In this document: positions 4,385 to 30,308 of the stretch, piece by piece
Layout: each line of letters opens with the position of its first letter
Position numbering within the stretch: the stretch's first letter is position 1
IMG/VR virus record: IMGVR_UViG_3300019872_000012
Location: 1-30,308 of that record
DNA: 30,308 nucleotides
Direction: 5' to 3' (one strand)
Origin: a virus
Lineage: Duplodnaviria > Caudoviricetes
Notes under the pieces: model-generated
Told to the model about the DNA's origin: nothing
Seen by the model: only the letters and a program-made list of their open reading frames with translations
Databases searched by the model: none
Position numbers and translations under genes: made by a program

Positions 4385-4444
4385 GAATTTTTCATCCGGC
4401 CCGCATTTATTTCGGCCGGGGAGTACGGGATTGAGTTATAGGCC

Positions 4445-7184: not shown

Positions 7185-7323
7185 TGCAATTGAGGGGCCA
7201 ATCGCCCCTGTCTCATACGGGAATCAGGTATAAAGTTTTTCCGGGAGGTTGTCAACGCAATTGAGGAAAAGGGAGCCGGATTTGTGATTTCGGTTTCATC
7301 ACCGTATCAGGATAGTACGGGAT

Positions 7324-7735
7324 TCAGTTCCACCAAATCACATCGAAAGTTTTGGATGTCACGGCGTCCGGTAAGATCAAAACCTCGACGGCTAGATGAG
7401 TGACTCTCTCAGCATTGGCGTTGGATTGGCAGAGAACCTCCGCGCGGACGGCTGTAACCCTCTCCGTATTGTCATCCGGTTGGATGAGGACTTCGACGTC
7501 ATTTTGCGTTACACGATTGGGCAACCGGGCGCCTTTCGATCAGGGCCTCCAAGGAAAGGCCTGAGATGCGGGCCGCGCCGTTGCCGGCTGCAACCAAGAC
7601 TTCGACCAAGGATTGAGAAACCCTCACGTTGTTGTCATCGCGCAGATAGAGAACCTCGGCCAGGCATTTAGAAACCCTGACCTGGTTGTCATCCCGCAAA
7701 AGTAAAACCTCGACCGCGCTAAGTGATATTCTCAT
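7324..7735 (-). CDS. Tail-associated 18-aa-repeat protein split by a +1 frame change near 7520-7540
   Basis: ORFs 7499..7735 and 7324..7524 share the R(I/V)(S/T)xxxxE(V/A)L repeat; removing one base keeps the 18-aa period across seven repeats. Confidence 0.7.
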
Positions 7736-8696
7736 AGCCCACCTGCAAGGCGTTGACCTTGGAAATTGTCCAAGCGGCCGCCGTGTCCGGATCCAATTCC
7801 TCGATCACTTCATGATATTGCTGGTAAGAAGTTCCGAGCCCTACGGTTGAGCCGTTGACAACGGTTGAGCCGCTTTTCAATTTCTGCCGGACTTCCCTGA
7901 CAACGCCATCCGTCTTTCGAGCAACCATGTGTTGTTGGACGGCGAAGATTGTACCGGAGGTTGTCACCAGAGGATCAAGATTGAATAGATCTATCTGACC
8001 TGTCGTCGATGATTCATTGTACGTCGTATCGCCGTCATTGGTCTGCGGCTCATCGACGTTCTGATAATTCGAGCCGGCTGAGGGCGTAAACTGTGTCGAA
8101 TCCCCGGCCGCGTTCGGATAGAGGGTCTCTACTTTCACATCACCAAGAAAATCATTTCCCGGGGCCGGCCCGCTTGTGTCTGAAAAATAATGATCGTCGT
8201 ACAGGCCCGTCGCCAGGCCGTATCGGGTGATGTAGTTGTTGCCGGTCTGTTGATTGTCAACGCCCGAAATGCTCAGCACGTTTGTACCGTTGACTTGAAT
8301 GTCGACGGCGCCGGCAGAATCATCAATGGTCGCCTTACACTCAATGTACGTCCAAGCACTTGCAGGAAACACGCCAGGCGCGGAGGTTCCAAGGATTGCG
8401 CCTCCCCCTCCCCCGCGTCTGACTTCGATAGCGCCGTCAGACTTCCTCATCAAAGTCATTTGATCAGAGCCGCCGTCACGTAAGAGCAAAAAGAAATCCG
8501 CATCTGTTTTATAAATGCCAAATCCAATAATGAAAGTGGTAATGTTTGAGTCAATGTCCCTGAGAAACGCGAAGGTTGTAGCCTGAGCTGAGAATGGGCC
8601 GGTTCTGGCGTTCGCATTCCGGCCGCCCTGGGAAATGTTCCAAACATTGGTGTCAATGTTGTCATAGTCGAATCCGGCAATAAGTAGGATAGACAT
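7719..8696 (-). CDS. Minor tail / receptor-binding-type virion protein with ConA/LamG-like beta domain
   Basis: Follows the tail tip gene; G/T/D/N rich; WTYIECKATI...VDIQVNG...YDDHY beta-sandwich pattern. Confidence 0.6.
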   Translation of the reverse strand: MSILLIAGFDYDNIDTNVWNISQGGRNANARTGPFSAQATTFAFLRDIDSNITTFIIGFGIYKTDADFFLLLRDGGSDQMTLMRKSDGAIEVRRGGGGGAILGTSAPGVFPASAWTYIECKATIDDSAGAVDIQVNGTNVLSISGVDNQQTGNNYITRYGLATGLYDDHYFSDTSGPAPGNDFLGDVKVETLYPNAAGDSTQFTPSAGSNYQNVDEPQTNDGDTTYNESSTTGQIDLFNLDPLVTTSGTIFAVQQHMVARKTDGVVREVRQKLKSGSTVVNGSTVGLGTSYQQYHEVIEELDPDTAAAWTISKVNALQVGYENIT

Positions 8697-11600
8697 CTAG
8701 GTTCTTTTTACCTCAAGTGAAATCGTAAGTTTTTGAATCGCTGTGACTGAGTTCACAACGACGGCGAGGATCATTCCTTTTGTCAAGGCCGTCGTCCAAC
8801 CGGTCAGAGTCACATCTTCATATTTGACGCCGGTCGTAATCGTTGGACGTGCGGAGGCAACAATCGAATCAGCAATTGTTGGCGGGTAGTTCGCATAGAC
8901 GTCGGCCCAAAGTTCAATTTCAACGGAGCCGGTCTGATCTGCAAAAAGCCTGACGCCTAATATCTGACAGTCATAAGGCACACGGGCGAAGCCCGCCAGG
9001 CCAAGAGGCAACGGCGAGGCCCCGCCGTCAAGCCTGAAATCAACTCCTGATATGGGCGCGAAAGTGGCCTGGCCCCCTCCATCATTGGTCAGGGTGTCTT
9101 TTGGAACCACAAGGATCGAGACGGAGGTTATATCCGGGGAGGCGTCGCTTTCCTTGATGTTGATCGCGCCGGCCGGCGAGGGCGTGAAAGTGGTACCACC
9201 TGTCGCCGCCCCTCCGGAGGCCGCCCCTGTTCCGAAATCATTTTCAGGAATGACTTTCACATCATGGACGCCTACCGGTAAGTTGCCTATTTCGAAAAAT
9301 CCCTTGTTCGCTGAGTCAGGGGTAACGATGATTCCGGTGTCTGTGAAAGATCCGGCGCCGGCTCGTTTGAGTTGAACGCGAGCCGTCTGCCGGCCAGGGT
9401 AGGCCGCAAATGTGAATTCTCCGCGCAGGGTTGCCGGCTCGACGCCCCCGCCTGGTTGTGTGATCGTCAGGCCCGTGACTTGGCCCGGAGGGTTTTCGGT
9501 ATAGGGCAGATTGGTTGGAAGGATGACCGAGGTTTCCCCGGGGGCGTCGATAAAGCTTCGCGTTGCATAAATCCGCCCAACGCAACTGACCGTAAAATCC
9601 AGATTGGCAATCTGAATCTGTAAATCTTCCAGTCTGACGGGAATCTGTCTATAACCTCCGCTCAGCGCCGAAACTGCAACGATGTCGCCCTCTTCCAGCA
9701 AAAGGGCCTTGCCGAACGCGCTGGCCTGCCAGGAATAGAAAAAGTCGAGATCCCTGAGCTTTGCAATTCGGGCCGCAACAAGCCGGTCGGCCTGGTGATA
9801 TGAATCAATGCCAAGGCCGTCAATTTCATCCGGCAAAGTCTTTCTGACCTTGGATTGATGATCAGTGTCATTCTCCCGGATCTCGACCAGCGCCCAATCC
9901 TGCGAGGCCTCCCGATATTTCAATTTGACCTGGTTAACCGAGCTCTGACGAGAGCCCAGGGGCCATTTCATACTGTTCGGAAGGATATTGTCCTGGTCGA
10001 AATGGGCCGAAATCCTCAGGAATTCATCTAAAACGGAGTGAAAATAAATCAGGCTAGAATCCAATACGACGGAGCCGAGTTTCGACCGGACATTGATGAT
10101 CGTAGGAGCTGAGGGACTCCAAAAGAATTCCAGATACCGTTTCAGCGTTGGGTTTGCGCTCAGCGTTGAGTACAGCATTCCGGCAACGGTTCCGGTCGTA
10201 TCGTTCGCGTTGCACGTGTAAGAGACAGCGAAGCCGTCAACCGTCGCCGTCACTGTGTTTCCGTTGGCCGGCGTTCCCCCAACTGTGTAAAAGCCTCGAG
10301 GCGCAATCGTCGGGGTCCCTCCGGCTAGGGTTGCTCCGGAGGCTGTCAGGGTCACTCCCCCGGTTGCTCCGGCAACAATTGGTACTGAATTGCCGGCCGC
10401 CGAATATTCAAAGCCCTGGGCGATGCGTATCTCACTATTGAATTCGTTGGGTGAGATCAGAACCTCAGTAGTACGGGTTTGAGTAAGAATCAAGTCGTCA
10501 ATAGTCGAGTCATCCGCTGAGCCCGGATCCGCCAGGAACTGAATCGAATAGATTGGCCTGGTGAGCCGGATGGTTGACTTGAACCCGGGATTCCAAATCC
10601 CTGAGCCCGGCGTCGGCCGTGTGTAAGTTTTGAAAACCCCATCTTCCATTGCAATCCGCACTTCATAGCCGTTAGCAACGGCCCCGCCCGCGCCCTGGGA
10701 AAGGGAATCATTCGAAGCCTCTTCATAACAAGCCGCCAGAACCGGAGTAATGCCGTACTTGTCTACTTTGAATGCGTGATCGAGCCGGTTGAAGGTCGGA
10801 GCCTCGCCCTGGTTGAAGGCAACATAGAAAACCCCGTAACTTACGATCGTAAAAACGAGATCAAAGTTAATTCCGCTGACTTTCTCCTCAGACAGCGCCC
10901 CGCCCTGAGCTCCGGAGCCGGCCGGCAGTTTAAGGCCGTTGGATCCGAATAGAACCGTCGCCCCTTTCAGCGCGGACCAATTGATATCCTCAGTCTGCCA
11001 GGTTGTGAACCGTCTGAAATCATTGACATCATCAACCTGGACTATACTGGTAGTTTTTGAGGCTCTGATAATTGCATCGGCCATCGCCGTCGAGGGCGTA
11101 TAAAATGCAGCCCCAACGCCAACCGGATAGATTGGGCTCAGCGCGGACGTGTGAGTCAGGACGCCCCCGACGTAATAATTAACCACGCCGGACTCATGCT
11201 TGATCTCAAAAAGGGTAACGCCAGGCGTAAAGCTGAAACCGGTTATGAAAACCCCGTTTTCATAGATGTAGCCGGCTCCGGGTGTCGTGATGTCGGCATG
11301 CATTCCATACCGGATCCCGTCATAGGATGTTGGCCCGGTCAGGGCTGCCTGATTTGTGACTCCGGCAAACTGGCCGCCTCCGGCCGGAAATCTAAACTCA
11401 AACGACCAATCACCGCTTGCAATTTGATCGAAGCTCGTAACAGCCGCATTTCCCCATGCGGCCGGCCCAAACGCGGTTCTAGTGACCTGGTTGTCAGGAA
11501 CGGTTGAGATCGTCACATTTAATTGCTGATTCCATGAGGGAACCGTGGCGGTAGGAACGGAGACTGGCGCATTGCCGGAGCGAATAAAGGCGTCGATCAG

Positions 11601-13718: not shown

Positions 13719-13724
13719 ATTCTC

Positions 13725-14111: not shown

Positions 14112-14113
14112 GC

Positions 14114-17100
14114 TCAGCCCCTCCGGATGACGGTCTGGTCGTCGTTGATGACTTTTCGGCTATCGCCGTCTGATTTATAGTCATTGGTGAAAGTACTGAC
14201 GATGAAAGCCTGGTCGGGCCGGATCGTGATGATATTTTCTATGATCCGGCGTTCCTGGTTAATGACAATCGGTTGCTGTGAGTCCTCGCCTCCGGTTGCG
14301 CCTCCGGAGTTGCCGAAAGTATCGCCTGAGCTCGTATTCTGACTAGGAGCAACAGCCCGGCCAACGATTGCGGCGCCGCCTGCCAGGCCGGCCCATAGTG
14401 CGGCCGACGTAAAGTGTCCGGCCGCGGCCGGGGGGTTGATAAAGAGCGCCCCAAATCCCAGAGCCAATTCCTTGATTGAATTCACCGCGGCCTCTTTGGC
14501 GATTGCGGCGAGTTGCTCAGCCAAAAGTTTACGAATCACGGCCGGCCCGGTTTTGCCGAGTAGTACGTAATTCTGTACGGCTGAACCGATTCCTTCAGCG
14601 AATCCCAGGAAAGCGCTCTTTCCAATCTCATCAATAGAAACAATGGAGTCTTCTATCGACTTCGAAAAATCCTCAATAACGGCCTTTGCCAGGCCGACCT
14701 GTGAGGCCATCTCTTGGACGCGCTCAGAGAATAGGGATTGAAAGCCCCCGCCGCTCAGCCGCTCATTTGCCGAGATCTTGGCGTCGATAGCCTGTAGCTC
14801 TATGGCCAGGCGTGCGCGTTCAATCACCAAGGCCGCGTTTTTGCCCTTCTCTATTTCTATGAGCTCAGCCGCGGAGGCCTTCGCTTCGACCGCGCGCCGG
14901 CGTACCTGTTCGAATTGCTCAGATATCGACCGTTCATTGTCCGCTGAGGAAAGCCGGGCGATCTCCCGTTGCGCCTCCAAATCTTGGCCCACACCGAGGG
15001 ACCTGGTCGCCGTGAATTGCTTAAGCACGTCGGCCTGGGCTCTCTGTAGATCAAGCTGAGCGGCCCTCAGACCGCGTACAGCTTCAACCCGTGCGTTGAT
15101 GTACCGGGAGAAGAGGGCCGCGTCCTTTGCCCTGGCCTCTTGTTCGCGTTCGAGGGCCTCAGTCTCAAATGTTGCCCGTTCAACAGAGAGCTTTTTAAGT
15201 TCGTCGGTAAGACGGCGCTTTTCTTCGGTCTCGTTTGTTTCGAGTGCCAGGCCCCTTTCGATGAGGGCTTTTCTATCGTCGAAGCGCTCACGTTCCAAAT
15301 CCAATAGCTTGGCCTCTGCCTCCGCATTGGTGATCTGATTACGCTTGACCTGGCCCCCAACGGCTTGGGTCTCTTGATCGCGTATCGCTTCGCGCAGTTC
15401 CAACAGCCTTTTGAAACGGCTCTCCTCATTTTTCAACTCCTCATTTTGTTGAGCCTCCCTAAGCTCTTGTTGCCGGCGTTCGGAATCAAGTATGGCCTGG
15501 TCTGCTTTGAGTGAGATCTCACGCCGTTTTACGTCCGCCTCTGCCTTGGTTTTGGCCGTCCGGACGGCTGCCGATTCCTCCGCTTTAAAAGTTGCAAGCC
15601 TGGTTGCTAGAAGGATGTTATCAAGATCGATGGCCTTCTGTGTGAAATCCTGGATTGAGAGAATGCGGGCCTGTAACGCATCTTTGAGTTGCTCCGTCTC
15701 ACGGCGGTTTCTGAGCTCAGCCTCTTTCTCATTGAGTTGCAGATCTTTCAACTCTTGTTTGGCTTGCTCCCGTGCCGCCGCCGCGGCCTTTTTGCCGTCC
15801 TCATCCTCTTTGGCCCGGCCCCGGCCCCCGGCCAGTTTTGCGCCCGTGTCTGCCGGCGTCTTGCGTCCCAGGCCAGGAACGGCCCGGACGTCGGCCGCCG
15901 CGCGCTTTCTTGCTTCCTCGATACGCTTGACAGCCTCGGCGCCCGTCTTGCCGAAATTCTTCATGCCCTCAACAAGGTTTTTCTCACCCTGTTTTGCGGC
16001 GTTCTCTGCGGCCTCACGTATCCCTTTGATTGCCCGGGCCTCAGCCGCGGCCTTGTCTCCCAGGCCTGGAATCAGGGAGGCGATTGCAGCCGTGATATCT
16101 GCTACCGCTTCAAGCGGCGTCAACAGAAATTGCACGACAGTTGAGCCGGCAATCTGGAAGCCGGCTGTCACAACTTTTATCAGGTCCCGTAGGTTGCCCA
16201 TTCCGGCAACAATTGACAACAAGACATCGTCGACAAATCTGATACGGGTTCCCCACTGATCACTGCCGGAAATGAGTGAAACGAAATCACCAATGATGAG
16301 CCCAACGATTCTGACGATCTCATCAAAGCTCTGAATGATTGCGCCTATTGCCGACCGGTTCTCGTTGATGAGTTGATTGATTGATTGAATCCCTTTCACA
16401 ACGAAATCAATCAAATCTGTGATCGTTTTGCCGGCCGTGTCGAAGATTCGTGTGAGTAGATCCGCAATCCCATTGAGATTGTTCGAAATCAGATTTGAAC
16501 TATTGAGATCAAAGATTTTCGGCAAAACCTCATTGGCTTTATCTCTGAGTTGATCAAAGAGGCCTTCCGACACAAGGGCGAATAAAGTACTCCGGGCCTC
16601 TTGTAGGTTGCTGGTCGCCGCCTCGAATGTCTTTGCAACGAGAGCGCCGGCCGCCGCGGCCTCTCTGAGCTTCTCCTCAAGAAACTCCGCAAATTTCCCC
16701 TGCTTTTGCGCCTCAAGTGCGGCCTGGCGAGTTATACCCAACGCAATGGCGGCCTGTGTGTTTCGATTGATCTCACCGCTCAGGATTGCCCGGGTTTCCT
16801 GTTTGATCTGATCGAGAGGCAAGCCGATTGCTGTCACGGCCTGGGTGATCGAGATCACATTTTTGCGCACCTGGTCGAGGGTCAGCCCGGCATTGAGCCC
16901 GGGGGCCAGGCCGGCCTGTAACGCCGGAGCAATGTCCTGAAAGGTCGCCGCCGTCTGCAGAGCGTCAATACGCAATTTGCGCATCTGGTCAGAGGCCAGA
17001 GGAATAGCCGCATTTAATGCGTCGAGGCCTCGCAACTGGATGCCGTCTGAGTTCCTGAGATCCCCAACCGAGGCAATCACCGTCGCTATTCCGAGTTGCA

Positions 17101-18085: not shown

Positions 18086-18086
18086 A

Positions 18087-18311
18087 TCACCCCGTCTTTA
18101 TTTTGAATCGATTCTTGTCGGTCAATCCGGCTCCAACCATGATTTCGATCATCTTGATTTGAGCTCTGATTTCGGCGTTTTCCGCTTTCGTCTTCTCAGC
18201 CCAATCCAGATAAACGAGGGCCGCCAAGTCGACCGCCATGGCTACTACGGGATCCGCTATCAACATCAACTCGGAAACGCGGACAGCGAACCTACGCGAC
18301 ATCTCGCACAT
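18087..18311 (-). CDS. Tail assembly chaperone, T-type C-terminal part (probably reached by frameshift)
   Basis: Overlaps the upstream chaperone in the +1 frame, open back to about 18380; immediately before tape measure. Confidence 0.65.
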   Translation of the reverse strand: MCEMSRRFAVRVSELMLIADPVVAMAVDLAALVYLDWAEKTKAENAEIRAQIKMIEIMVGAGLTDKNRFKIKTG

Positions 18312-18846
18312 CGCGTGGAAATTGGGGGAACGGATGAAACCTTTCCACTTTTGGAACGCTCGTTTCTTGTCCGTCTGTGAGCTTCACCGGCAACGCCGGC
18401 GACATGTTCATACCGTACTGATAAATGGCCTGGATAATATGGGCTGAGCCTTCGCAGGCTCTGAGAGCAATCTCACCCTCGTTTTCATCCTCTTCCGTTC
18501 CATCGATGAGAATAGGTTCAACGCAAATCTTTTTAGCCATATCCCACATGAAATCGAGGACATCAAGAGTGTCTTTGCCGCTCATCTTTGCCGCATCCTT
18601 CTGAGCCTGGTCGAGTGCATTCTTGAGGTCGCCATATTGATTGTTGTTATCACCCAACAATAACAGGGCCATGCTCTGAGGCAGGGCCTTGTTATAGATA
18701 AGCGATGCCAGATCAATACGCCGGGCCTTGCAATCAAAAGTGTAATCCTCTCCGAGGGCTGGAATCGGCAAAGAGATTTCAGCAACTGGAAAGGACGGCT
18801 TTTTTGTTTTGAAATTCTTGCGGTAGTCGGTTTTGTCTTGGCTCAT
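18292..18846 (-). CDS. Tail assembly chaperone (G-type)
   Basis: Between tail tube and tape measure; GAAAGGAA RBS. Confidence 0.75.
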   Translation of the reverse strand: MSQDKTDYRKNFKTKKPSFPVAEISLPIPALGEDYTFDCKARRIDLASLIYNKALPQSMALLLLGDNNNQYGDLKNALDQAQKDAAKMSGKDTLDVLDFMWDMAKKICVEPILIDGTEEDENEGEIALRACEGSAHIIQAIYQYGMNMSPALPVKLTDGQETSVPKVERFHPFPQFPRDVRDVA

Positions 18847-18859
18847 AGATTTCCTTTCG

Positions 18860-18889
18860 AAAAAAATAGGGGGCTGTCGGCCGGCCCCC
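18860..18889 (-). terminator. Terminator/attenuator after the tail tube gene
   Basis: GGGGGCC...AGCCCCC stem followed by TATTTTTTT. Confidence 0.6.
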
Positions 18890-18918
18890 GGTAGTCTTCA
18901 AACATCCCAACCGGAAAG

Positions 18919-19518
18919 TTAGGCGGTTTGTTTCCAAAGGGCTGCGACCTGATCGGCCGCCGCGCGTGTAGTGATGGCAGTACCAACAAGATTGATTGAG
19001 CCGGCTGAGTCCTCGTTGCGGTTCATCGCCGCATTGAAGCCGCTAGCATTATAACAGCGGTACAGGTTGTAAACGCCGTACAGCGTCGAGGAACCTTCCA
19101 GCAACCAGATGGCCGCCGCGCTCATATAGCTGACTGTCTGCAGAGAGCCGTAGGTGATTTTTTCTTTGTTTGTTGGAACCGTTTTAGTGCCTCCCAACGT
19201 GAGCATAACAACAAGATCCATATCTGTCATTTGCAGAAAATCCCCCTCAATCCGACATTCTTGAGTTGCGATTGAGACGGCATAGGGCGTCGGGAAATTG
19301 TCAGATGATTTCTCATTCACAGTGGCGTTCTGAATGAGTGTCGCTCCTGTTTTCAGCATTCCAACGTGTTTTGCCGTTGGATTGGCAACGCTTTCCGGCG
19401 TCCCATCTGTGTGGAGCGTGATTTCCGCGGCCGCCCCTGGGATTGCAAGTTTCCCCCAAAGGTCCGTAGGCCCGTGGAGTGTTTTGGTTGAGTCGTAAGC
19501 TAAAGGTGTTCCCGGCAT
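18919..19518 (-). CDS. Major tail tube protein
   Basis: 199 aa, Thr/Ala/Gly rich, HVGMLKTGATL motif, canonical position. Confidence 0.75.
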   Translation of the reverse strand: MPGTPLAYDSTKTLHGPTDLWGKLAIPGAAAEITLHTDGTPESVANPTAKHVGMLKTGATLIQNATVNEKSSDNFPTPYAVSIATQECRIEGDFLQMTDMDLVVMLTLGGTKTVPTNKEKITYGSLQTVSYMSAAAIWLLEGSSTLYGVYNLYRCYNASGFNAAMNRNEDSAGSINLVGTAITTRAAADQVAALWKQTA

Positions 19519-19566
19519 AGATTGAAATCTCCTCTCTCAGAGTTCATACGGGTTGAAGGCCCCGGG

Positions 19567-20070
19567 TTAAAAGTTGCGTTTCTCCGTCATCTTGACGGGC
19601 TGCAATGCCGGAGCGTCGGCCGGCCGTTTAGTTCCCTTGCCGGTATATCTGAGGCTTTGAATCAACAGGCCGGTCGCGTGATTGGTCTCGTTATAGGCGT
19701 GTTGTTGCTCCGGGCTCAGAGAGGCGAACCATGCTTCAAGGCCGGACTCCTCAAGCCCGTCCGGAGGGAGAGGGAACAGGCCCAGGGCTGCGCGCCGTAC
19801 GGCTCTGCCTTTGCCGAATGAATTGGGATCCAGGTCGGGAAACCATCCCTTTTCCTCATGATAACCTCCGACCACGGCCAGCTTATGATAGTTATCAGGC
19901 CCCAAAGCGGCATAGGTCCAAGGGAAGGGAGGTAACTTATTCAAGTCAAGCCCCTCGTCATAGTCGTCGGCCGTGATGACATTCGCTGTACCAGTGGCCG
20001 GGTTTGCCGGAGTTGAGGCCGGCAACGTGACACCGTCAGGATTCTTTTCGCCGTTTGGCATAAAGTTCAT
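19567..20070 (-). CDS. Hypothetical protein (167 aa)
   Basis: TAAGGAG RBS; Pro-rich N-terminus. Confidence 0.7.
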   Translation of the reverse strand: MNFMPNGEKNPDGVTLPASTPANPATGTANVITADDYDEGLDLNKLPPFPWTYAALGPDNYHKLAVVGGYHEEKGWFPDLDPNSFGKGRAVRRAALGLFPLPPDGLEESGLEAWFASLSPEQQHAYNETNHATGLLIQSLRYTGKGTKRPADAPALQPVKMTEKRNF

Positions 20071-20575
20071 TACTCCTTATAGGTATAAAAAGGCCGTCGC
20101 CGACCTGGTGTTTTTTGGATGACACATCGAAAACCGAGAACCGCCCCAATCGTTCTGCCGGATGTCCGATCAGGATTGCTCCGGGGTTTCGCTGTACCGC
20201 TTCAAGCTCTCGCGCAAGTAGCGGCCGGATGAGATCAATTGAGATCTCGCCCTTGATGAGCCGCGCTCCTGTCTGTTGTCCAACGCCGGAGAGCCACGCC
20301 ATGGCCAGGGTTCCGGCTATGAGAAAATCATTGTTCGACCAAAGGACCGTCGCCGTGTGAGCCTCACTGTCAACTGGGTCTCTAAAACCTATCGAGCTAT
20401 GCCAGGCCACGCCTGCGTCGTCAAACATATCGATAGTCAGGACTGATCGGACAAGATGAGGGCCGGCCTGGAATTCATAAATAAACCCTTCTTTGTTGCA
20501 ATCCTCAGCACTCCAACAAGGATTTGCCAGGACGAATTTCTGACGCGGCTCAACAAGCTCTTGATAAATCATCAT
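20036..20575 (-). CDS. Hypothetical protein (about 179 aa, MMIYQELVEP...)
   Basis: Start reassigned to ATG at 20575, overlapping the upstream TAA. Confidence 0.7.
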   Translation of the reverse strand: MMIYQELVEPRQKFVLANPCWSAEDCNKEGFIYEFQAGPHLVRSVLTIDMFDDAGVAWHSSIGFRDPVDSEAHTATVLWSNNDFLIAGTLAMAWLSGVGQQTGARLIKGEISIDLIRPLLARELEAVQRNPGAILIGHPAERLGRFSVFDVSSKKHQVGDGLFIPIRSNELYAKRRKES

Positions 20576-21123
20576 TACCTGCTTTCGGTGAGACGGATGA
20601 AAAGCTCGAAATTCACCGACCGGATATAAACGCCGGCCTCTTCCCTGGGCTGTGCAATCTGTCCATAGATTGCGTTTCGCACAGTCACTTTGACGCCGCC
20701 CTGGTCGGCCCCGGCGCCGGGGAAATTCTGACGCCATTGAGCCCTGGTTGCCGACAGGAAACACATCATTGTGGCGTCGTAGTACCGGATGAGGGTTTCT
20801 GTTAACAAGCTTATCCGGCCGGCCTGGTCGTCATTGGTCAAGTCTTCATCCGCCAGAAAAATGGATACGGCAAAACTATGTTGCTGGTCGACGCCGCCTT
20901 GCTCGAATATGCCCGCATTGTTACCGGCCGGCTGAATGATCAAAAGAGGAAAGCTCCGGGAATGCCGGGTTGAGTACTGAATCCGGGCATATTCCGGCCC
21001 GGATTCAGATGAGCCGTACGCCCACTCGAGAGCCTCTTTCATGTCGGTCTCGATGATCCGCTTTGCGTTTTGCAATAGGGGCAACTGACCGGCCAAATTT
21101 GAAAAGATAGGATTGAAAGGCAT
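20575..21123 (-). CDS. Putative tail terminator / completion protein
   Basis: Position after the morphogenesis gene; FPLLIIQP motif; TAATG coupling at both ends. Confidence 0.5.
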   Translation of the reverse strand: MPFNPIFSNLAGQLPLLQNAKRIIETDMKEALEWAYGSSESGPEYARIQYSTRHSRSFPLLIIQPAGNNAGIFEQGGVDQQHSFAVSIFLADEDLTNDDQAGRISLLTETLIRYYDATMMCFLSATRAQWRQNFPGAGADQGGVKVTVRNAIYGQIAQPREEAGVYIRSVNFELFIRLTESR

Positions 21124-21977: not shown

Positions 21978-21978
21978 A

Positions 21979-22425: not shown

Positions 22426-22440
22426 TGGGCCAGACTCCCG

Positions 22441-22824
22441 TTAGGCCGGCATGGTTGCCGACCGTTCCTTCAATTCACCTTCCAGCGCCTTAATGCGCGC
22501 CCTGATCTCATCAGGACTATTGACGGCGGCGCCTGGGCCGGAGACTTCGTTAATTGCTCCGCGGATATGCGAGGGCAGAGCCTGAATCGTCGGATACTGG
22601 ATTCCGTAAATGCTCATACAACCGCCGCCGTTATAGACGTCGACAATCGCTTGAACTGAGTGCATGAGCGGTCTCTCTTTCCCCTTTCGGTCTTTGATGT
22701 ATAGGCCGGTCGGGCTGAATTCCAAGGGGGCCGGCTCAGCGCCGGAGCCTGAGCCCGGATCTTCCGTCTTTTTGTCAGGGCCTGCCGGCCCCTGGGATTG
22801 TTGGTTTTTCTCTTGGCTTGCCAT
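22441..22824 (-). CDS. Hypothetical protein after the capsid gene
   Basis: AGGAG RBS; disordered N-terminus and short C-terminal coiled coil. Confidence 0.75.
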   Translation of the reverse strand: MASQEKNQQSQGPAGPDKKTEDPGSGSGAEPAPLEFSPTGLYIKDRKGKERPLMHSVQAIVDVYNGGGCMSIYGIQYPTIQALPSHIRGAINEVSGPGAAVNSPDEIRARIKALEGELKERSATMPA

Positions 22825-22944
22825 ATTGCTCCTAGATTCGAAGTTGATGATTGAGCCGGCCTCATTCCGGAGGCCGGCTCGTTGGTGGGCCTTTCACCCT
22901 TATATATAGTCACGATGGGACTGCAGAAAGGCCCCTGACGATTC

Positions 22945-24090
22945 CTAGAACGGATCCGATACCGGGATCGGGTCGGTAAATGCCCCGGCAGTGATCACCG
23001 CCGATGATTCGACGCGGTGTTTGCGGGAGAAGCCGCGGGCCACTGACCAATAAGTCACTCCCGGGGGGTTGAGGTTCGCTGAGGCCGCCGTAACATAGGC
23101 GACAGGGCCGCGCGTTGGGCCGGAAAAGTTGCCGTTGACGGAATTGGGTACCAAGCCCTGTACGATGGACTCAGTGACAACCCCGTTCGCCCAATCTCGC
23201 ACGTTTGAGTTGTTATCCTCAGCCGTGTTTGTGAAAAGCACCTTCGTGATCGGCAGGAACGGCGCCGACGTCGTGTCTCCATTCGGGGCCTGCGACCAGT
23301 ACCGGCTGTCATAAAACTCAATGACATCGAGGCCCAGAATCTGAGCGGCGAGTTTTTGCATCAACTGAGTATTGGCCTGGGGTACCAACGCCTCAGTAAA
23401 GTTGTTGCCGAAAATGCCGAGGTTCTTGATGTACGTCTGAAACTGGGTGGTTGCAATCATGTAAGTGAATGCGGCCAAGCTCATAGTCATCCGGTTGAAG
23501 ATCTGACCATAGCGAACCTGGGCCAGGCGTTTCAGGTTGAGAATGTCGTCGACCGGGTGAGCCGTAAGAGGCGTATCCCAGGTCGGCGAGGCCGTCACTT
23601 TCAGATCTGACGGCATCCCCCACGAAACGTTGCTCATCTTGATTCCAAGCCGGTCATAGCTGAAAGAATCGAGCAACATCCCCATGATGATTGCCTCTTC
23701 GCGTTGGCGCACGCCAGTCAAAAGGCTGTCGAGGGTCCGCCGTTCCCAGTTTCGGAAAATTCCATCCTCATCAGTGACCGCGGAGGCGTCGAGGGATGAG
23801 AGCTGATTGAGCATTGCCTGTGTGAGCCCAACGCCATGTTTCAGATTAGGGATTTGCACGCTTTCAAACGCGAATTTCCCAGTCTGGTAAATATTTGCAC
23901 GCTCATCATCAGCGATGATGTCGGCAATCTGCACACGCCCCACGAACCGGCCCATGATCTCTTCATCAACGGCAGGAACGGAAGCCGTCCGGCCAAGAAA
24001 TAAGAGTTCTCCGGGGAGGTCGCGCGCGTCTTGGAGAGCCCGGAAGATCTTGGACACTCGGACTACGTTAAAGACTTCGTTACCAACCAT
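22945..24090 (-). CDS. Major capsid protein (lambda gpE-like family)
   Basis: About 381 aa; GAGGTG RBS before ATG at 24090; QREE...GML and W...TAHPVDDI motifs; follows the decoration gene. Confidence 0.88.
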   Translation of the reverse strand: MVGNEVFNVVRVSKIFRALQDARDLPGELLFLGRTASVPAVDEEIMGRFVGRVQIADIIADDERANIYQTGKFAFESVQIPNLKHGVGLTQAMLNQLSSLDASAVTDEDGIFRNWERRTLDSLLTGVRQREEAIIMGMLLDSFSYDRLGIKMSNVSWGMPSDLKVTASPTWDTPLTAHPVDDILNLKRLAQVRYGQIFNRMTMSLAAFTYMIATTQFQTYIKNLGIFGNNFTEALVPQANTQLMQKLAAQILGLDVIEFYDSRYWSQAPNGDTTSAPFLPITKVLFTNTAEDNNSNVRDWANGVVTESIVQGLVPNSVNGNFSGPTRGPVAYVTAASANLNPPGVTYWSVARGFSRKHRVESSAVITAGAFTDPIPVSDPF

Positions 24091-24151
24091 TGGTTTCACC
24101 TCAAAAAGAAAATGTTGATTTGCGCCGGGGTTGACTCATCTGGAATCCGTA

Positions 24152-24652
24152 CTATTCGGTTTCCTTGATGAGGATGCGAGGAAAGGCCGCCAGAAACTCA
24201 ACCTTGGTCGGCCCCAAAGCCAGAGTATGAGCGGCAACGCCGGATTGTAGGATCCGGTCAAACCAGACCATTCCTCCCTCAATCACTCCCGGGTGATCTG
24301 ACGCCGGAGAGTTCGACAGGCCGGCAATCATTCCCTTTTCAAGTACGGTCTGATCGAGAAGCACGACGGCCCCCCGGGTGAGAACCTCGCGGCCATCAGC
24401 GGCGGCCGGATCATAAGGCCCCCACTTTCCTCCGGAGGTAATGCGGGTCAGAACCTGGCCGTACCGCAGATATTTTTCTCCGATAGGAATTATGATTCCG
24501 TCTTTGAGAGTGACAGGGGATCCAGAGACGGCAACAACGGTCGCCCAATCAATTGTGATGCCTACAGAGTGCCATTCGGGTTGCCCGTCCGCGGATACTC
24601 TCAGGCCGTTGGAAGTTTTCAGGGTCAAGGTTTTCGGTCCATAACTCGGCAT
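24152..24652 (-). CDS. Head decoration protein (lambda gpD-like)
   Basis: GQVLTRITSGGKWGPYDPAAADG motif; between protease and capsid. Confidence 0.85.
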   Translation of the reverse strand: MPSYGPKTLTLKTSNGLRVSADGQPEWHSVGITIDWATVVAVSGSPVTLKDGIIIPIGEKYLRYGQVLTRITSGGKWGPYDPAAADGREVLTRGAVVLLDQTVLEKGMIAGLSNSPASDHPGVIEGGMVWFDRILQSGVAAHTLALGPTKVEFLAAFPRILIKETE

Positions 24653-24654
24653 AA

Positions 24655-25164
24655 TTATTTAACCTCCGCGGGTCGGGCTGAGCCCCGGCCGTATTTCTTG
24701 GCCCACGCAAGCGTGGCCTGGTATTCGTCGTCAAATTGAGCCTTCTCAGGATCATCGCCCGCGTTCCCGGGAATGGTCCTGGTACTGGCCGGCTCAGGTA
24801 CCAACTCATCGGTCAGTTTGTGAGCCTTTAGCGAATCACAACGGGTTTTCAGCCGCTGTACACGTGTGCCTTCGGATAAAGGATGATCGAAATCATCGAT
24901 AGCGGCTTGGAGGTAATCCGCCGTCAGGGCCTTGGCCTCAAACGGAAAGATTTTGTTATTTGCGAAAAGGCCGGCAACAAACGCCGCGGCCTCAGTATCG
25001 AACCTCTTAAGGGTTTCGGCCCTGAGGCTTGTGCGCATCTGTTCGATGGTTGCACTCTCCTCATCGCTGAGCCCCTCCGGAGGTTTGGCGGCCAACGCCT
25101 CAGAGCTCTCTTTATTCAAGAGAGATGCGATGTATTTGCCCGCTTTCGTATCGCCAAACTTCAT
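24655..25164 (-). CDS. Nested scaffolding protein (internal in-frame start MKFGDTK)
   Basis: GAGGAG six nt before the in-frame ATG at 25164, right after the protease domain; same layout as lambda C/Nu3. Confidence 0.6.
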   Translation of the reverse strand: MKFGDTKAGKYIASLLNKESSEALAAKPPEGLSDEESATIEQMRTSLRAETLKRFDTEAAAFVAGLFANNKIFPFEAKALTADYLQAAIDDFDHPLSEGTRVQRLKTRCDSLKAHKLTDELVPEPASTRTIPGNAGDDPEKAQFDDEYQATLAWAKKYGRGSARPAEVK

Positions 25165-26025
25165 GGGTTGCTCCTCTGCTAAAGCTCCGCGGCTCTCGAA
25201 AGCTCCGCGGGAAATCTGCGCTTGAAGGGTTGCTATTACGGATTCCAGTGTACCAACCGAATCGGCAAAGCCGGCCTTGACGGCGGAAACCCCGATGATG
25301 GTTCTGCCTCCAAGTTCAAGAATTGCTTTTTCCTTGATACCTCTGTTCTCTGCAATCGCGTTGACGAAAATCTGACCGAGCTCATCAACGTGAGCCTGCA
25401 AGTCTGCCCGGCCCTGATCGCTTTCAGGGTCGGACAACTTGCGGGGGCTGACGGACGAAACAAATCTCACCGTGTCCTCTTCGTCGTCTTTATACGCCGT
25501 GAGGATAATTCCAATTGATCCCACCGAGGCCGTACGCTCAAGAGTGATCGACTCAGCCGCGGAGGCAATCCAATAGGCCGCGGAGGCTCCAAGGTTGCTG
25601 ACGTAGGCCCATACGGGTTTCCGCTTGATCGCCTCTTTGATCATCAGAGCAAATTCATTTGTCCCGGAGACGGTACCCCCGGGGCTGTCGATGTTGAGGA
25701 CGATTCCCTTGATCGAGGGGTTTTCGACAAGGGCTGTCAGCTCATGCGCCATATCCTGCAGGCTTGCGGCGCCGGAGATCTCGGAAAACATAGTGGCTTT
25801 GGGAAAGATTGGGCCGGCAATTTCAATAACTCCGACCTGGCCTCTGATCACCGTGGCCATTCCGCCTTCCAGACGCCGGCCGGGCCGGGCTGACAGGGCC
25901 TCTACCTCGCCTTGCAGCCACGCCGGCGTATCTCTCGAGGCTATTGCGGCCATAACCGTCAGGGCCTCTTGGGTGATGGCCCAACGCGCCGAAAACATAG
26001 CTCTGAGAATTGCGGTAGTCTTCAT
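24655..26025 (-). CDS. S49-family capsid maturation protease with C-terminal scaffold
   Basis: LNIDSPGG, ASAAYWIASAA and VGSIG motifs of SppA/S49 peptidases. Confidence 0.95.
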   Translation of the reverse strand: MKTTAILRAMFSARWAITQEALTVMAAIASRDTPAWLQGEVEALSARPGRRLEGGMATVIRGQVGVIEIAGPIFPKATMFSEISGAASLQDMAHELTALVENPSIKGIVLNIDSPGGTVSGTNEFALMIKEAIKRKPVWAYVSNLGASAAYWIASAAESITLERTASVGSIGIILTAYKDDEEDTVRFVSSVSPRKLSDPESDQGRADLQAHVDELGQIFVNAIAENRGIKEKAILELGGRTIIGVSAVKAGFADSVGTLESVIATLQAQISRGAFESRGALAEEQPMKFGDTKAGKYIASLLNKESSEALAAKPPEGLSDEESATIEQMRTSLRAETLKRFDTEAAAFVAGLFANNKIFPFEAKALTADYLQAAIDDFDHPLSEGTRVQRLKTRCDSLKAHKLTDELVPEPASTRTIPGNAGDDPEKAQFDDEYQATLAWAKKYGRGSARPAEVK

Positions 26026-26036
26026 CGTTTTCCTCT

Positions 26037-26079
26037 AAAAAGCCCGGGGTACCCCGGCAGGATTACCCCGGGCGTTTTG
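26037..26079. terminator. Hairpin between portal and protease genes
   Basis: GCCCGGGGTA / TACCCCGGGC arms with an A run on the left and TTTT on the right. Confidence 0.55.
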
Positions 26080-26117
26080 ACCGCGGAAGCCAAGAGAAGC
26101 CGCGGTTTCCTTCGGGC

Positions 26118-27638
26118 TCACAAGGCCCTCATTCGCACCTGCATTGTTTCCCTTTTGAAAACATCACGGGCGGTAACTTTCTTGACCAATCTCTGACGGC
26201 CTTCAAGCCATTCTTTCATGGCCGCCTCTTTCTTCTTTTTGTCGGCGCCGGGGGCGTCCTCCAATCCGGGCTGGATCCCACGGGCCGGCCTGTCTTCACC
26301 TGGTAGAGGGGGCTCGATGCCGGCCGCCAGGCATAAGGCGTCAAACTGCGAGTCAGATAAATAGACAGCCAGAGCCGCAATCGACGCGGCGTCCTTCGCC
26401 CAGTCATATCTATCCGTTTCGCCCATCGCAACGGCCGGAGCCAGGCGCAAAGATTCAGGGCCGAAATTGAACAGCATCAACGGCCGGATGTAATCGCGCA
26501 CCAAGGCATCGCAGAGCCGTTGTTTGAGAAACCAAACATAAGTTGTGAGGAGTGAGAGGGAAGTGGTTGAGTCTGCCTTTGAGCCATGCTCAGCCTCCGT
26601 TGTCGCTCTCGTTGTCCGGAGCTGTCCAACGGTGATTTCCTTGTTGACCAGTTCGAAAACTTTATCAAATAAAGCGCCGTCTGATTCTTGTTCGACGGTT
26701 GTGACCTTGGCCCCGTTTTGGATGGCCATGGCTGAGCCGTTCCCGAATGACAGTAGGGCCGCCATCATTACATCGGTCGGGTTTTGTATGACCGGCTCAC
26801 CGTTCACTTTCTTGACGGTACCGTCCGCGTTCTTTGCAACCTCAACGACGGTATTGGGCGCAACCTCGCCAATCAAGCCGGGGATTGCGCAGATCTTGAG
26901 AAACTTTTGGAGTATCGGCCAAAGTTCTTGCTTGAATTTCCATGACGCGAAGATCGAGCGGAAACCCTGCCGGCCGCGGATATCCTCATTTTTCTTTGTG
27001 ACTGTGAGAATTATAAATTTTGATCGAGGGAGAACCGGCCGGTCATTGGCGTCGAGTTTCAGGCCCCTGGTTGTGTCCGGGCCGTACGCCGGCTGAATCC
27101 CCAGGATATTCCAATACGCGTCGATCAAGAAGTAGATGGATGAGGAGTCTTTTAGCTTTAGGTATCGGCTCACAAGCTTGCCGGCGTCGGGGCCGGCGTC
27201 GATCCGTTGCATCGTATGCTCAGCAACTTTGTTTCCGTAGGGGATTGCGTCAAGTAGCCCCTCACAGAGCTCTCTGATCGAGCCCCCTTCCAGATAGTCA
27301 TCCATGCAACGGCTGATAAAGGCCGCGTATTCTGCGGCCGTCACACTGTCCGGGGCCTGCATATCCTCATCAACAACCCTTGGGATGATTTGCAACCCAT
27401 CCGCTAAAACAAGCTCTTTGAGGAGTTGAAGATTAGACGATACAACCGGGTCAGTTTGCATCATCTCAATCGTCGCAGTTGGCAGGTTTGTGCAGAGGTC
27501 AGAATGGGTGGGAACTACGGCCGGCCGGACTGATCGAGCTCCGTTGTCAACAGAAACGTACTCCCTCGTCGCGTCCGCGCGCACTAGATTCAGGCCAGGT
27601 TGCTCTGTGTCTTCTGTGATGCGGTCTGCTATCGGCAT
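26118..27638 (-). CDS. Portal protein (DUF935 / Mu gp29-like)
   Basis: About 506 aa; DPVV, AIPYGNKVAE, GRQGFRSIF..WKFK...P and NKEIT..GQ motifs. Confidence 0.85.
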   Translation of the reverse strand: MPIADRITEDTEQPGLNLVRADATREYVSVDNGARSVRPAVVPTHSDLCTNLPTATIEMMQTDPVVSSNLQLLKELVLADGLQIIPRVVDEDMQAPDSVTAAEYAAFISRCMDDYLEGGSIRELCEGLLDAIPYGNKVAEHTMQRIDAGPDAGKLVSRYLKLKDSSSIYFLIDAYWNILGIQPAYGPDTTRGLKLDANDRPVLPRSKFIILTVTKKNEDIRGRQGFRSIFASWKFKQELWPILQKFLKICAIPGLIGEVAPNTVVEVAKNADGTVKKVNGEPVIQNPTDVMMAALLSFGNGSAMAIQNGAKVTTVEQESDGALFDKVFELVNKEITVGQLRTTRATTEAEHGSKADSTTSLSLLTTYVWFLKQRLCDALVRDYIRPLMLFNFGPESLRLAPAVAMGETDRYDWAKDAASIAALAVYLSDSQFDALCLAAGIEPPLPGEDRPARGIQPGLEDAPGADKKKKEAAMKEWLEGRQRLVKKVTARDVFKRETMQVRMRAL

Positions 27639-27707
27639 GGTGCTTCGCACGTGAGAGTATTAGAAGATACGAAGCTGTAAGGCCCGCAAGGTTAAACTTT
27701 GCGCAAT

Positions 27708-27947
27708 TTACGTGGGCTGAGATCCGTTTGTCAAGCCGGCCGCCAAGGTTTCCGATTTTTCGAGTCGCCACTTGACGTTCCGTCCACACGTACATTGAAT
27801 TGTGAAAGGGTACCTCAGGGCCAGGCCATTAGAGAGCCTGAGTTTGCATTGGAGGATGATTATCGTTCCCAAAAACTGATTGCAATGATGGCAATGAAGG
27901 GCGAGTTGTGGGAGATCCGGATTGTGGTCTTTTTGTTCGAAAGGCAT
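27708..27947 (-). CDS. Small Zn-ribbon protein (Mu Com-like spacing)
   Basis: CHHCNQFL...IQCTCG; start at ATG 27947. Confidence 0.6.
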   Translation of the reverse strand: MPFEQKDHNPDLPQLALHCHHCNQFLGTIIILQCKLRLSNGLALRYPFTIQCTCGRNVKWRLEKSETLAAGLTNGSQPT

Positions 27948-28024
27948 AGGTGAGAAAATTTGAGCCGGCCGCAGTCTTCCCAACCGCGACCGGCAACCCT
28001 GTAGCGAAAGTAGAGATTCTCTGT

Positions 28025-28387
28025 TTATTTCTTCTTATCACCTCCCTCCGAGGCCGCGGCCGCCTTCGCTGGATTCACATCAAAGGCTCCTGGGAAAAAC
28101 GCGCCGTCGCCATATTTCACAGCCGGGCCGTAAATCAAAAAGAGCTCATTGCCAACCGCAACCTGTTCGTCACTGGCGGCCGGGCCAAGCTTGAGGGCAT
28201 TGATTGCCTCTTTGACCTGGTCGGCGTTCAATTTGGTTGCTCCGGTCAATGACGAAATTACGCCGGCCGGAATCGAGTCGGCGAATGTCTTAGGGGCCGG
28301 TTTGGCCTGGGCTTTGGGGGCCTGTACTACGGCCGGGGCCGTGGCTACGGCCGCAGGTACCGGCGTTTCTGTCTTATCATCTGCCAT
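28025..28387 (-). CDS. Ala/Pro/Lys-rich hypothetical protein
   Basis: GAGGAG RBS before ATG at 28387 (MADDKTETP). Confidence 0.75.
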   Translation of the reverse strand: MADDKTETPVPAAVATAPAVVQAPKAQAKPAPKTFADSIPAGVISSLTGATKLNADQVKEAINALKLGPAASDEQVAVGNELFLIYGPAVKYGDGAFFPGAFDVNPAKAAAASEGGDKKK

Positions 28388-28466
28388 AAAACTGTTCTCC
28401 TCAGAATTGGAAGGTTTAGATTTGGCCGGCCCGTCTTGGCTCAAGCCGGCCCCTGTCGTGATGGTA

Positions 28467-29144
28467 TCACGATTTAACTGAGTTGCCGGCAAAGTGAACC
28501 CTGACCGGCTCAGCCAATGCGGCGCCGTCACGAAAGATAATGTAAAAACCTTTGTCAGGATAGAACGCGATCAGGCAATCAATAAAGCCCCGCGTATCTA
28601 CCGTTGTCATGAGCTTGTACTCTCTCGATAGATGAAAGAAGGGAGCCTCTGAGGTCAGACAACGGCCGTCGCTCATTATGATGGCCCCAAAGATCTGAGG
28701 TATTCCCGTCACTTCAATCCTTTGTTTTTCGCTCATAAAAGTCAGCTTGTGTTTGCCGGCCAGATACCGCTTGGCCTCATAGAAGGCCCGGCCCCAATTC
28801 CCTACCGGCTGCCGGAGCTGATTGCGCATCCCCGGGAGAAGCGAATAGAAACAGGAATGGCAAAATGGTTCGTCGACGCCCTTCGAACCTGAGCAGGCTT
28901 TGCAAATGAAGCCGGCATGCTCAGGGCCTGGCGGCGGGTTTGGGATCGTGTAGGCCGGCTGGCGTTCGAAATTATCCATTGGCCCGCTCAGGGCCTCGCA
29001 TTTGTTGGTGAAAGAAAAAGGGAAGGGAGGCAAAGACTCGATTCGCTCCGGCCGGGGTATCTCTTCAAACATCGCCGGCCGGCCCAGGAAAGGAAAGGAT
29101 GAGCATTCTCTGCGCGGTAACTTTTCGTCTGTGTTTTCGTTCAT
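28467..29144 (-). CDS. Hypothetical protein with CxxC...CxxC Zn finger
   Basis: ATGA overlap with the terminase stop; CKAC...FCHSC. Confidence 0.7.
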   Translation of the reverse strand: MNENTDEKLPRRECSSFPFLGRPAMFEEIPRPERIESLPPFPFSFTNKCEALSGPMDNFERQPAYTIPNPPPGPEHAGFICKACSGSKGVDEPFCHSCFYSLLPGMRNQLRQPVGNWGRAFYEAKRYLAGKHKLTFMSEKQRIEVTGIPQIFGAIIMSDGRCLTSEAPFFHLSREYKLMTTVDTRGFIDCLIAFYPDKGFYIIFRDGAALAEPVRVHFAGNSVKS

Positions 29145-30308
29145 TCTGGCCTCAATTGTTTTTCACGGTCGCCGCCAATCAGAATCATAGGGCCGGTCAC
29201 AAAGCCGGCATAGGCAAGATTAAAGGCGTCCGCATCATCTGGTGATCTTTTCAAACGCTTTTTGGTGTTCTCTTTGGGCTCAACCACGCGTCGGCCGTGT
29301 CCATCAAGTTTCCAAATAGGCGACATCAACTGCTTTCGCAATTTATCACGTGATACGGAATCCAGTAAAGACAGATCAAGCCTATTTTCCCGGCAACGCT
29401 CTGCGGCCGTAAACCAGAGCTCTGAGCGGCGTTTTTCATACTTCTCTTCATCAAGCGCTTTTGTCCCGGCTCCTATGCCGATGAAATGGTAATAGCCCTT
29501 CTGATCAACAACTCCCCCGCCGACGCCGGAATCATCAATTAGTACGGGAATCTGGAAGGGTTCTAAATTGCAGAGGGGGGAATATTTAATACAGAGCTCT
29601 TTGAGCCGGCCGGTTGTAAACTTCGTATCTCTCCCCTGATAAGATTCATGGTAGATCGAGATTCCGCCTTGCCTTACGTGGATCGAGGTTTCATCGTCTC
29701 CGAACCGGGCGACGTCGCAACCAATTTGCACAATTCTATTGACGGAATCCCGTAATAAATCTTCCTTCGCCAGACACGCCAGGCGAAACAGGCCGTCAGA
29801 CCAGATTGAGTCAGACGCCGACGAAGGCCAGCGCCCCATGACACGGCCCTCGAAACGGGCGTCGGGGCGGTACCAAGTCAGCGGGATTCCCTTGGTCAGA
29901 CAGTAATCGGCCGGGGGCCAAACGAAATCGAGCTCCGGCTTGATCTCATCATCCTTGCCGAGTTTTACACACCACTGATCAAGCCTTTGGTTGAGCCAGG
30001 AAAGTGATATCGCTTTGGGGTATGGTTTCGGCCGGCCCCAAAGCTCAGCCTCAATATTTGGGTGATCGAATGCGGAGATTTGAATCGTCCGCCAGGTACC
30101 TGAAAGGAATTCCTGATATGCGTATGAAGTGGTGTCCGTTGGGTTCATAATTGCCAACCAACGATTGCCGGCGCCGGATGACAGCATGCCGTCTGCGGCC
30201 GTCCAGAATTGTTCATGGATGCCGGTCGCCTCTTCAAAGATGATCAAAAGATTTTCTTCGTGATCACCCTGGAAGCTATCCGCGTTCCGGGCCGTGTACC
30301 CTCCGGCA
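29141..30308 (-). CDS. terL: Terminase large subunit (5' part outside window)
   Basis: FQGDH...LIIFEEA Walker B region, IMNPT coupling motif, GCDVARFGDD, DDSGVGGGVVD and RSPDDADA nuclease motifs. Confidence 0.95.
   Translation of the reverse strand, partial: AGGYTARNADSFQGDHEENLLIIFEEATGIHEQFWTAADGMLSSGAGNRWLAIMNPTDTTSYAYQEFLSGTWRTIQISAFDHPNIEAELWGRPKPYPKAISLSWLNQRLDQWCVKLGKDDEIKPELDFVWPPADYCLTKGIPLTWYRPDARFEGRVMGRWPSSASDSIWSDGLFRLACLAKEDLLRDSVNRIVQIGCDVARFGDDETSIHVRQGGISIYHESYQGRDTKFTTGRLKELCIKYSPLCNLEPFQIPVLIDDSGVGGGVVDQKGYYHFIGIGAGTKALDEEKYEKRRSELWFTAAERCRENRLDLSLLDSVSRDKLRKQLMSPIWKLDGHGRRVVEPKENTKKRLKRSPDDADAFNLAYAGFVTGPMILIGGDREKQLRPE

Follow-up and report, generated by a model that had tools for sequence, protein, structure and literature searches.

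Why would an operator-like palindrome recur within the late genes of a tailed phage as well as in its early promoters? The question is raised by IMG/VR record IMGVR_UViG_3300019872_000012, a stretch of 30,308 nt from a soil metagenome that covers about half of the phage genome and is referred to below as the window. The element is a 14-bp palindrome, TACGGGATCCCGTA, present in early promoters and within late-gene coding sequence. A preliminary description of the window took the late copies for stoperator-like or genome-coating sites. They are real, non-chance repeats, and we consider it probable that they are extra sites of a predicted dimeric helix-turn-helix (HTH) protein of the HTH_26 family, whose silencing would then reach beyond the early promoters to the genes for packaging, head and tail. 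Thirty-seven of the 38 called genes lie on the minus strand and encode the terminase, portal, S49 protease, decoration, major capsid, neck, tape-measure and tail proteins, followed by small early genes. The sole plus-strand gene, at 4480-4890, encodes the HTH_26 protein.

The late-gene copies occupy two reading frames. The copy at 11308..11321 lies within the gene of a 1673-aa tail protein (codons D-G-I-R-Y), and that at 18246..18259 within the open reading frame (ORF) 18087-18311 (I-A-D-P-V), 160 bp ahead of the tape-measure start. The third, at 22595..22608, falls in ORF 22441-22824 (Y-G-I-Q-Y). The last two lie 387 bp apart within the terminase gene terL, at 29354..29367 (L-L-D-S-V) and 29741..29754 (L-R-D-S-V), and terL also holds a weak copy (10/14) at 29543..29556. 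All seven coordinates in the preliminary description were correct, as was its statement that the five late-gene copies each match TACGGGATCCCGTA at 12 of 14 positions and that those at 22595 and 29354 are exact reverse complements of one another. The product of ORF 18087-18311 had been called a chaperone, a label that has gene position as its only basis; it had no PHROG match.

The copies exceed chance, as had been proposed. In the whole window, eight sites had two mismatches or fewer; dinucleotide shuffles gave 0.03, and 0 of 100 reached the count. The late-gene count is a fair single test, because the motif was defined by the intergenic copies. Over 22,518 late-gene coding bases, again with at most two mismatches, five sites were observed, compared with a mean of 0.33 in synonymous shuffles that kept the proteins (none of 3000 reached five) and 0.05 when codon order was shuffled. 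The exact probability of five late-gene sites, given the proteins and codon usage, was 1.6e-7. Since the genome has strong word biases, we added frame-aware Markov nulls, which gave 1.7e-7, 1.4e-7 and 1.2e-4 at orders 3, 4 and 5, respectively. Among 2038 14-bp palindromes of similar expectation, only TACGGGATCCCGTA reached five. The prior for each site, given the protein, was 0.21 at 22595, 0.015 at 11308, 0.011 at 29741 and 0.0004 at both 18246 and 29354. The earlier caveat that Tyr-Gly-Ile codons might inflate the count thus applies to 22595 (Y-G-I-Q-Y) and not to the other four.

Past the top five to seven sites, the excess of weaker matches was slight, and therefore the copies form a discrete set rather than a coating. 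Genome coating, with about 11 good sites in 30 kb, found no direct support. Regular spacing of the strong sites was rejected (gaps of 3992, 6938, 4349, 6759 and 387 bp), and so was an RNA hairpin: folding at the five intragenic sites was nothing unusual (z from -0.27 to 1.23), and they are therefore DNA-level sites.

Conservation could be followed in terL. A metagenome contig (L151) was retrieved by searching for the 29354 peptide with a degenerate pattern; this pattern fixed amino acids but no codons, and it left 29741 and 29543 untouched. Over 331 codons, the L151 terminase is 81% identical to that of the window at the DNA level and 89% at the protein level. The sites at 29354, 29741 and 29543 are identical in L151 at all 14 bases, with a 15-nt identical run at 29543. 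In the two strong sites, all 10 synonymous codons were unchanged, against 147 of 265 (55%) elsewhere (P about 0.05 per site), and the weak site kept 5/5. Synonymous conservation thus held at both strong terL sites, in one relative and for two of the five strong sites. Around 29354, a block of 50 nt (29324..29373) is identical, and the nine codons downstream of the site are likewise unchanged (P 0.007). The valine that the motif end at 29354 requires is outside the five commonest residues at its position in 122 aligned terminases, and an 88% relative (P0125) has S replaced by P at the degenerate Y position of the motif, a comparison at the protein level only. Judged by sequence, the sites are under selection at least in terL. 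A weak match of the position weight matrix at 29880 was discarded as a site, as it was not conserved in L151.

The sequences support the assignment of the late-gene copies to the operator family of the early promoters, which are sigma-70-like and point leftward. One perfect operator (1796..1809) lies in the spacer of TTGATT-17-TATGAT, and the other (3122..3135) is 8 nt upstream of the -35 element of TTGACG-18-TATGGT. Spacers of 17 bp also hold an 11/14 operator at 2383..2396 (TTGATC-17-TATGGT) and a 12/14 operator at 4362..4375 (TTGCTC-17-TATGGT). A further 11/14 copy, at 7316..7329, also occupies a spacer; the leftward promoter around it is a weak candidate, which scores 7/12 and fails a stricter test. 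Four intergenic copies thus show the promoter-spacer geometry (1796, 2383, 4362 and, in the weaker promoter, 7316), for which the background is 0.5%. The 7316 copy is one base off 4424 and lies at the end of the tail operon, as previously reported; it is not a mid-gene site, since it covers the stop codon of ORF 7324-7524 together with part of the intergenic gap. The HTH gene is transcribed away from the 4362 promoter. Its own predicted promoter (4445..4473, plus strand; TTGAAT-17-TATATT) places the ATG 7 nt past the -10 element, a leaderless-like arrangement; a half-site overlaps the -35 element, and a degenerate operator (4424..4437; 10/14, one half perfect) lies immediately upstream. Palindromic operators that overlap early promoters, and a divergent HTH regulator with sites at its own promoter (4362, 4424 and the half-site), are both lambdoid-type features. 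Two early genes are preceded by a near-identical leader of about 75 bp (~2325-2400 and 4305-4380) with promoter, operator and ribosome-binding site.

The likely binder of the palindrome, on sequence grounds, is the HTH_26 protein itself (4480..4890, plus strand). It is a Cro/C1-type protein of 136 aa (Pfam PF13443, E 1.9e-6), with a low-complexity C-terminal tail of 53 aa that contains 15 Lys, 9 Ala and 6 Pro. PF13443 was the only domain found in the Pfam search, and a CI-type S24 autopeptidase domain was absent. The model of residues 1-85 had a pLDDT of 91, whereas an earlier one, built from four sequences, was poor (pLDDT 49). The protein is predicted to be a dimer: the homodimer score was 0.45, against 0.00 for the best control, with contacts agreeing 100% between runs and a partner pLDDT of at least 80. 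Of 30 solved pairs, 20 attained the mark for a homodimer, as did 1 of 23 single chains, and the pass of the HTH_26 protein may reflect memory of solved Xre dimers. Foldseek returned nothing at an E of 0.001 or better; the best rows were SaPI2 Stl and CylR2, so that Xre-type regulators are weak best structural matches, and no Stoperator-domain fold was among the matches listed. No sequence match was found in the PDB. Atlas matches below 0.9 are leads only, and a representative search gave 65 matches without genomic context.

The phage host is likely a member of the Acidobacteriota, class Blastocatellia, because a capsid relative (46%, L129) lies on a contig of a Pyrinomonadaceae genome and the HTH profile matched in 29 of 201 Pyrinomonadales genomes. 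The exact motif occurred 12 times in those 201 genomes, mostly as codons of receptor and other genes; two of the matches are site pairs in the divergent promoters of an HTH_26 gene, within integrated elements (G208 and G182). Paired 12-bp cores occurred in 2 of 401 Blastocatellia genomes, both at divergent promoters of an HTH_26 gene. The form TAC-N8-GTA was first spotted by eye and then tested on 27 loci found by protein alone (30 were fetched, and three without a clear start were dropped). Upstream of these HTH_26 relatives it occurred 10 times, in seven loci, against a shuffle mean of 0.92 (0 of 500 shuffles), while spacings of 4-7 and 9-12 were at or near chance. The inner eight letters vary between elements. 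As a family (L171-L200, L155, L160), these HTH_26 proteins of Pyrinomonadales islands are often divergent from an integrase gene and have 14-bp TAC-N8-GTA operators. The lysine-rich tail is found in the window protein and three close relatives, and most of the family lacks it; that the tail is linked to site dispersal is our hypothesis.

How would the late-gene sites act? In the explanation that we favor, the HTH_26 repressor would block initiation at the leftward early promoters and, through 29354, at an internal terL promoter. The latter is a predicted extended -10 promoter on the minus strand, within the identical block 29324..29373 and directed toward the head genes (TTTACT at 29369, 18-bp spacer, TAAATT at 29340, TG at -15/-14). 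The 29354 copy overlaps its -35 element and spacer, and the promoter is one of only four minus-strand extended -10 promoters that score at least 8/12 (with a background of 0.6% for each site, or about 3% that one among five sites would show such an overlap). Hence, 29354 is probably an ordinary operator, through which an internal promoter for head genes would be repressed, and it needs no elongation block because it overlaps this conserved promoter. The four promoter-less copies (29741, 22595, 18246 and 11308) are likely auxiliary or roadblock sites, which would retain the repressor along the late operon and lower read-through or cryptic transcription, either through looping or as partial roadblocks. 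Looping would pair 29741 with 29354; 29741 could be an auxiliary operator at a lac O2-like distance. The other three are scattered 4-7 kb apart along the operon. Silencing by roadblock is possible, and the lysine-rich tail might aid it.

Several observations weigh against this explanation. Small Xre dimers are usually poor roadblocks. The sigma-70 scan found no promoter match at four of the five intragenic sites, and each of the five, at 12/14, is weaker than the perfect sites at the promoters (1796 and 3122). The conserved block had already been seen when the extended -10 criterion was chosen, and the peptide at 29354 was fixed by the search pattern for L151. By a stricter standard of comparison, full conservation in L151 is also shown by 103 of 980 windows of 14 nt. 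DNA conservation covers one relative and two of the five strong sites. In the family, the exact TAC-N8-GTA form is missing at 20 of the 27 loci. Moreover, the window HTH is 24-26% identical to the two HTHs that share its word, which is below most relatives without the word; the recognition helices differ, and a single clade of word-sharing HTHs was rejected (p-AU 0.02; long branches). Given the low identity and the rejected clade, the shared word may be convergent. Integrase, ParA and ParB were not found in the window, which is about half of a 59.8-kb genome; a silent prophage state may exist, with about 29 kb outside the window, and another binder may be encoded there. Binding and function are predicted.

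Could simpler accounts suffice? All intragenic copies might be plain operators of internal promoters, sense or antisense, that the sigma-70 scan missed, with neither looping nor roadblock. This holds for 29354 by sequence and conservation, the scan may not fit the promoter rules of the host, and 7316 also lies in a weak promoter spacer. We find it unlikely, since the spacer geometry occurs at none of the five intragenic sites, four have no promoter match, and at 29741 the nearest -10-like hexamer is altered in L151 while the site is kept. That the copies form a repressor sink or copy-number counter, which would titrate the HTH protein during replication and time a switch without local effect on transcription, seems quite unlikely to us. 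Constrained codons of essential genes are not needed for a sink when intergenic room exists, and the conserved promoter block at 29354 would be left unaccounted for; nevertheless, promoter-less, symmetric and somewhat weak sites 4-7 kb apart would suit it. According to PMC6550527, the part that the many Cluster A sites play in immunity is unclear, and relative affinities may matter. In another account, the terminase copies alone would be functional, and the other three would have arisen by chance or persist as neutral products of biased codon and word use. The prior of 0.21 at 22595, the strong word biases, the order-5 null (which lifts the expectation to 0.84), the exact copies that YGIPY codons create in host receptor genes, and the restriction of the L151 comparison to the terminase sites are consistent with this. 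The order-5 model was trained on the sites themselves, though, and the codon and order 3-4 nulls give priors of 0.0004 to 0.0014 for 18246 and 0.015 to 0.043 for 11308, which makes the idea highly unlikely.

Two further accounts assign the palindrome to another protein. It might be a dispersed centromere-like or KorB-like site of a ParB-family or other protein encoded beyond the window, with roles in partition and repression. About half of the genome is outside the window, a distant relative (G001) with ParA and no tyrosine integrase has its own palindrome about every 5 kb, and KorB silences from distant sites (PMC11790492). We regard it as very unlikely, because ParB_N and ParA were not found in the window, the palindrome agrees with the TAC-N8-GTA pattern seen for HTH_26 proteins, and it is paired with HTH_26 genes in islands where an integrase or a tRNA end was seen and no par genes facing it. 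Finally, the phage might have co-opted a box that belongs to a host regulator, for example LexA; the word does occur in islands that encode an HTH only distantly related to that of the window. In five Pyrinomonadales genomes (the host being inferred), the 1500 bp upstream of five recA and seven lexA-like genes held nothing better than three mismatches. Copies with at most one mismatch numbered 2 to 8 per genome in five genomes, where about 3 are estimated by chance, and 9 of the 12 copies listed fall inside genes. A host box is thus extremely unlikely.

To place the predicted HTH_26 operators among known systems, we compared them with Cluster A phages. Phages such as L5, Bxb1 and TipsytheTRex carry 20-30 asymmetric 13-mers, oriented with transcription and located in short intergenic spaces, and their repressor is a monomer with an HTH and a second DNA-binding (Stoperator) domain (PMC6550527, PMC9283540). 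We group the Streptomyces R4-type phages (PMC10276819) with Cluster A in this comparison. As in Cluster A, one predicted repressor site would serve the early promoters and many promoter-less places across the genome. Here, about 11 symmetric 14-mers are found in 30 kb (about half a genome), five of them within codons, with a predicted Xre-type dimer as the binder; within one operon direction, a single variant of the site occurs in both orientations, at 22595 and 29354. The stoperator assignment of the preliminary description was therefore not borne out, as asymmetry, orientation, intergenic position and a monomeric two-domain repressor are all missing. From its sequence features, the set would work like a dispersed master-operator system; it is not a set of Cluster A stoperators.

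Lambdoid CI/Cro operators are palindromes in divergent promoters by a leaderless-like HTH gene, and lac O2 is an auxiliary operator inside lacZ, about 400 bp from the main site. The window is like both, with divergent-promoter palindromes at a leaderless-like HTH gene and a second site about 400 bp off in coding sequence. It is unlike lambdoid phages in that an S24 peptidase domain is lacking, the separate early promoters number at least four, and late-gene sites lie up to 25 kb away. The conserved inverted repeats of phiC31 and the operators of P1 C1 are other precedents, and the centromere sites of N15 are dispersed, as are the palindromes of the window. The RK2 KorB operators and the N15 IR1-4 centromere sites need a ParB-family clamp (PMC11790492, PMC7205306). 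Their sites resemble ours in being palindromic, with some far from promoters, and are linked to long-range silencing; no PF02195 or PF13614 was found in the window (about half of the genome). The SPBRE peaks of SPbeta fall at promoters, and MrpR is built on a recombinase fold (PMC10516654), whereas most late copies here are intragenic and the protein is a small HTH_26.

A further comparison is with the HTH_26 integrase-control modules of Pyrinomonadales, which share the protein family, the TAC-N8-GTA form, the divergent layout and, in two cases, the exact word. They differ in that their sites are confined to the divergent promoter in seven of seven 40-kb regions (one 2-mismatch copy lies 6 kb off, in G208) and in that their proteins mostly lack a lysine-rich tail. 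These seven regions are islands and not a like-for-like control, because they have no match to the window virion proteins. It is conceivable, though doubtful, that an island-type HTH_26 repressor became a genome-wide silencer: it would have gained the lysine tail, its operator would have been written into codons of essential virion genes, even altering amino acids, and bound dimers would bridge or block the late operon both ways. If true, a counterpart of stoperators that does not depend on orientation would have evolved independently in a lineage of Acidobacteriota phages, for which no cultured member was found. No account of the element was found in the literature searched (mostly without subscription papers).

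The strategy of control is one that other phages are known to use, and the finding is likely a variant of it that relies on a palindrome. It offers a compact, testable system of one 136-aa protein, one 14-bp site and natural variants, in which one can ask if an ordinary dimeric HTH repressor silences a long operon from intragenic sites, and if a basic tail enables it. The predicted regulatory DNA constrains the codons of the terminase and probably also its residues. The analysis also provides an operator rule (TAC-N8-GTA, inner letters variable) for HTH_26 proteins of a family that is common in mobile elements of Pyrinomonadales, and it indicates which group of bacteria this soil phage likely infects.

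The window proteins also occur on a 59,769-base contig of another assembly, of which about 29 kb lies beyond the window. Two sequencing runs, both of one sample, were listed as containing the sequence, with no RNA run among them. Contigs from these two runs differ from the window at one base (12772) and at none of the sites, and no strain variants at the sites were found in the sequencing-run contigs. An integrase match was seen in 10 of 27 records searched for signs of a temperate lifestyle, and not in the window (about half of the genome). Scans of viral contigs with the HTH or tail proteins found no relatives, a scan with the terminase N-terminus gave one 44% match and did not recover the missing half, and no cultured phage with the window HTH was found. 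The 69 loci in viral contigs with exact motif matches, none with a tblastn match to window proteins, were taken as chance, and a longer promoter-plus-operator pattern gave no matches. Among 61 capsid or terminase relatives screened, only L105, a capsid relative (43%), has copies with at most two mismatches (two).

Several observations apart from the palindrome deserve mention. On the plus strand at 7081-7200, a 10/12 promoter (TTGAAA-17-TACAAT) points at the tail-operon end and is followed by an 85-nt strong fold (z -3.8), possibly a small RNA or antisense transcript. On the minus strand at 7324-7735, two overlapping ORFs share VEVL-type repeats in different frames, as in a programmed frameshift or a broken gene; the sequencing-run contigs had no indel. 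The late genes (7499-30307) show word bias beyond codon usage: CCGGCC occurs 127 times (38.6 expected), GCCGGCC 72 (14.6), CTGAGC 50 (11) and GGCCGGCC 17 (2.2), and GCAGC, CCAGC, GGACC and GGCAC are strongly depleted. Restriction avoidance may cause the depletion; the bias is common to L151, where 4/5 of the CCGGCC copies are conserved. Upstream of its terminase genes, L151 has a Flp/Fap pilin-like gene (2482-2658, minus strand; Pfam E 1.9e-6, below the curated cut-off). In five of five Pyrinomonadales genomes (L201-L205), a conserved parS-type-like word lies upstream of recA, a candidate regulator box. Distant capsid relatives have dispersed long palindromes of their own (G001, G015, G025 and G007). 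The seven copies in G001, where ParA is present and a tyrosine integrase and ParB_N were not found, are at 16398, 21985, 26376, 31689, 37319, 42203 and 49957, six of them about 5 kb apart; G015 has five copies of a motif similar to that of G001. Both G001 (~33600-36300) and G015 (~18100-20900) also carry a prokaryotic ubiquitin-like cassette (Prok-E2_D, Prok-JAB, ThiF).

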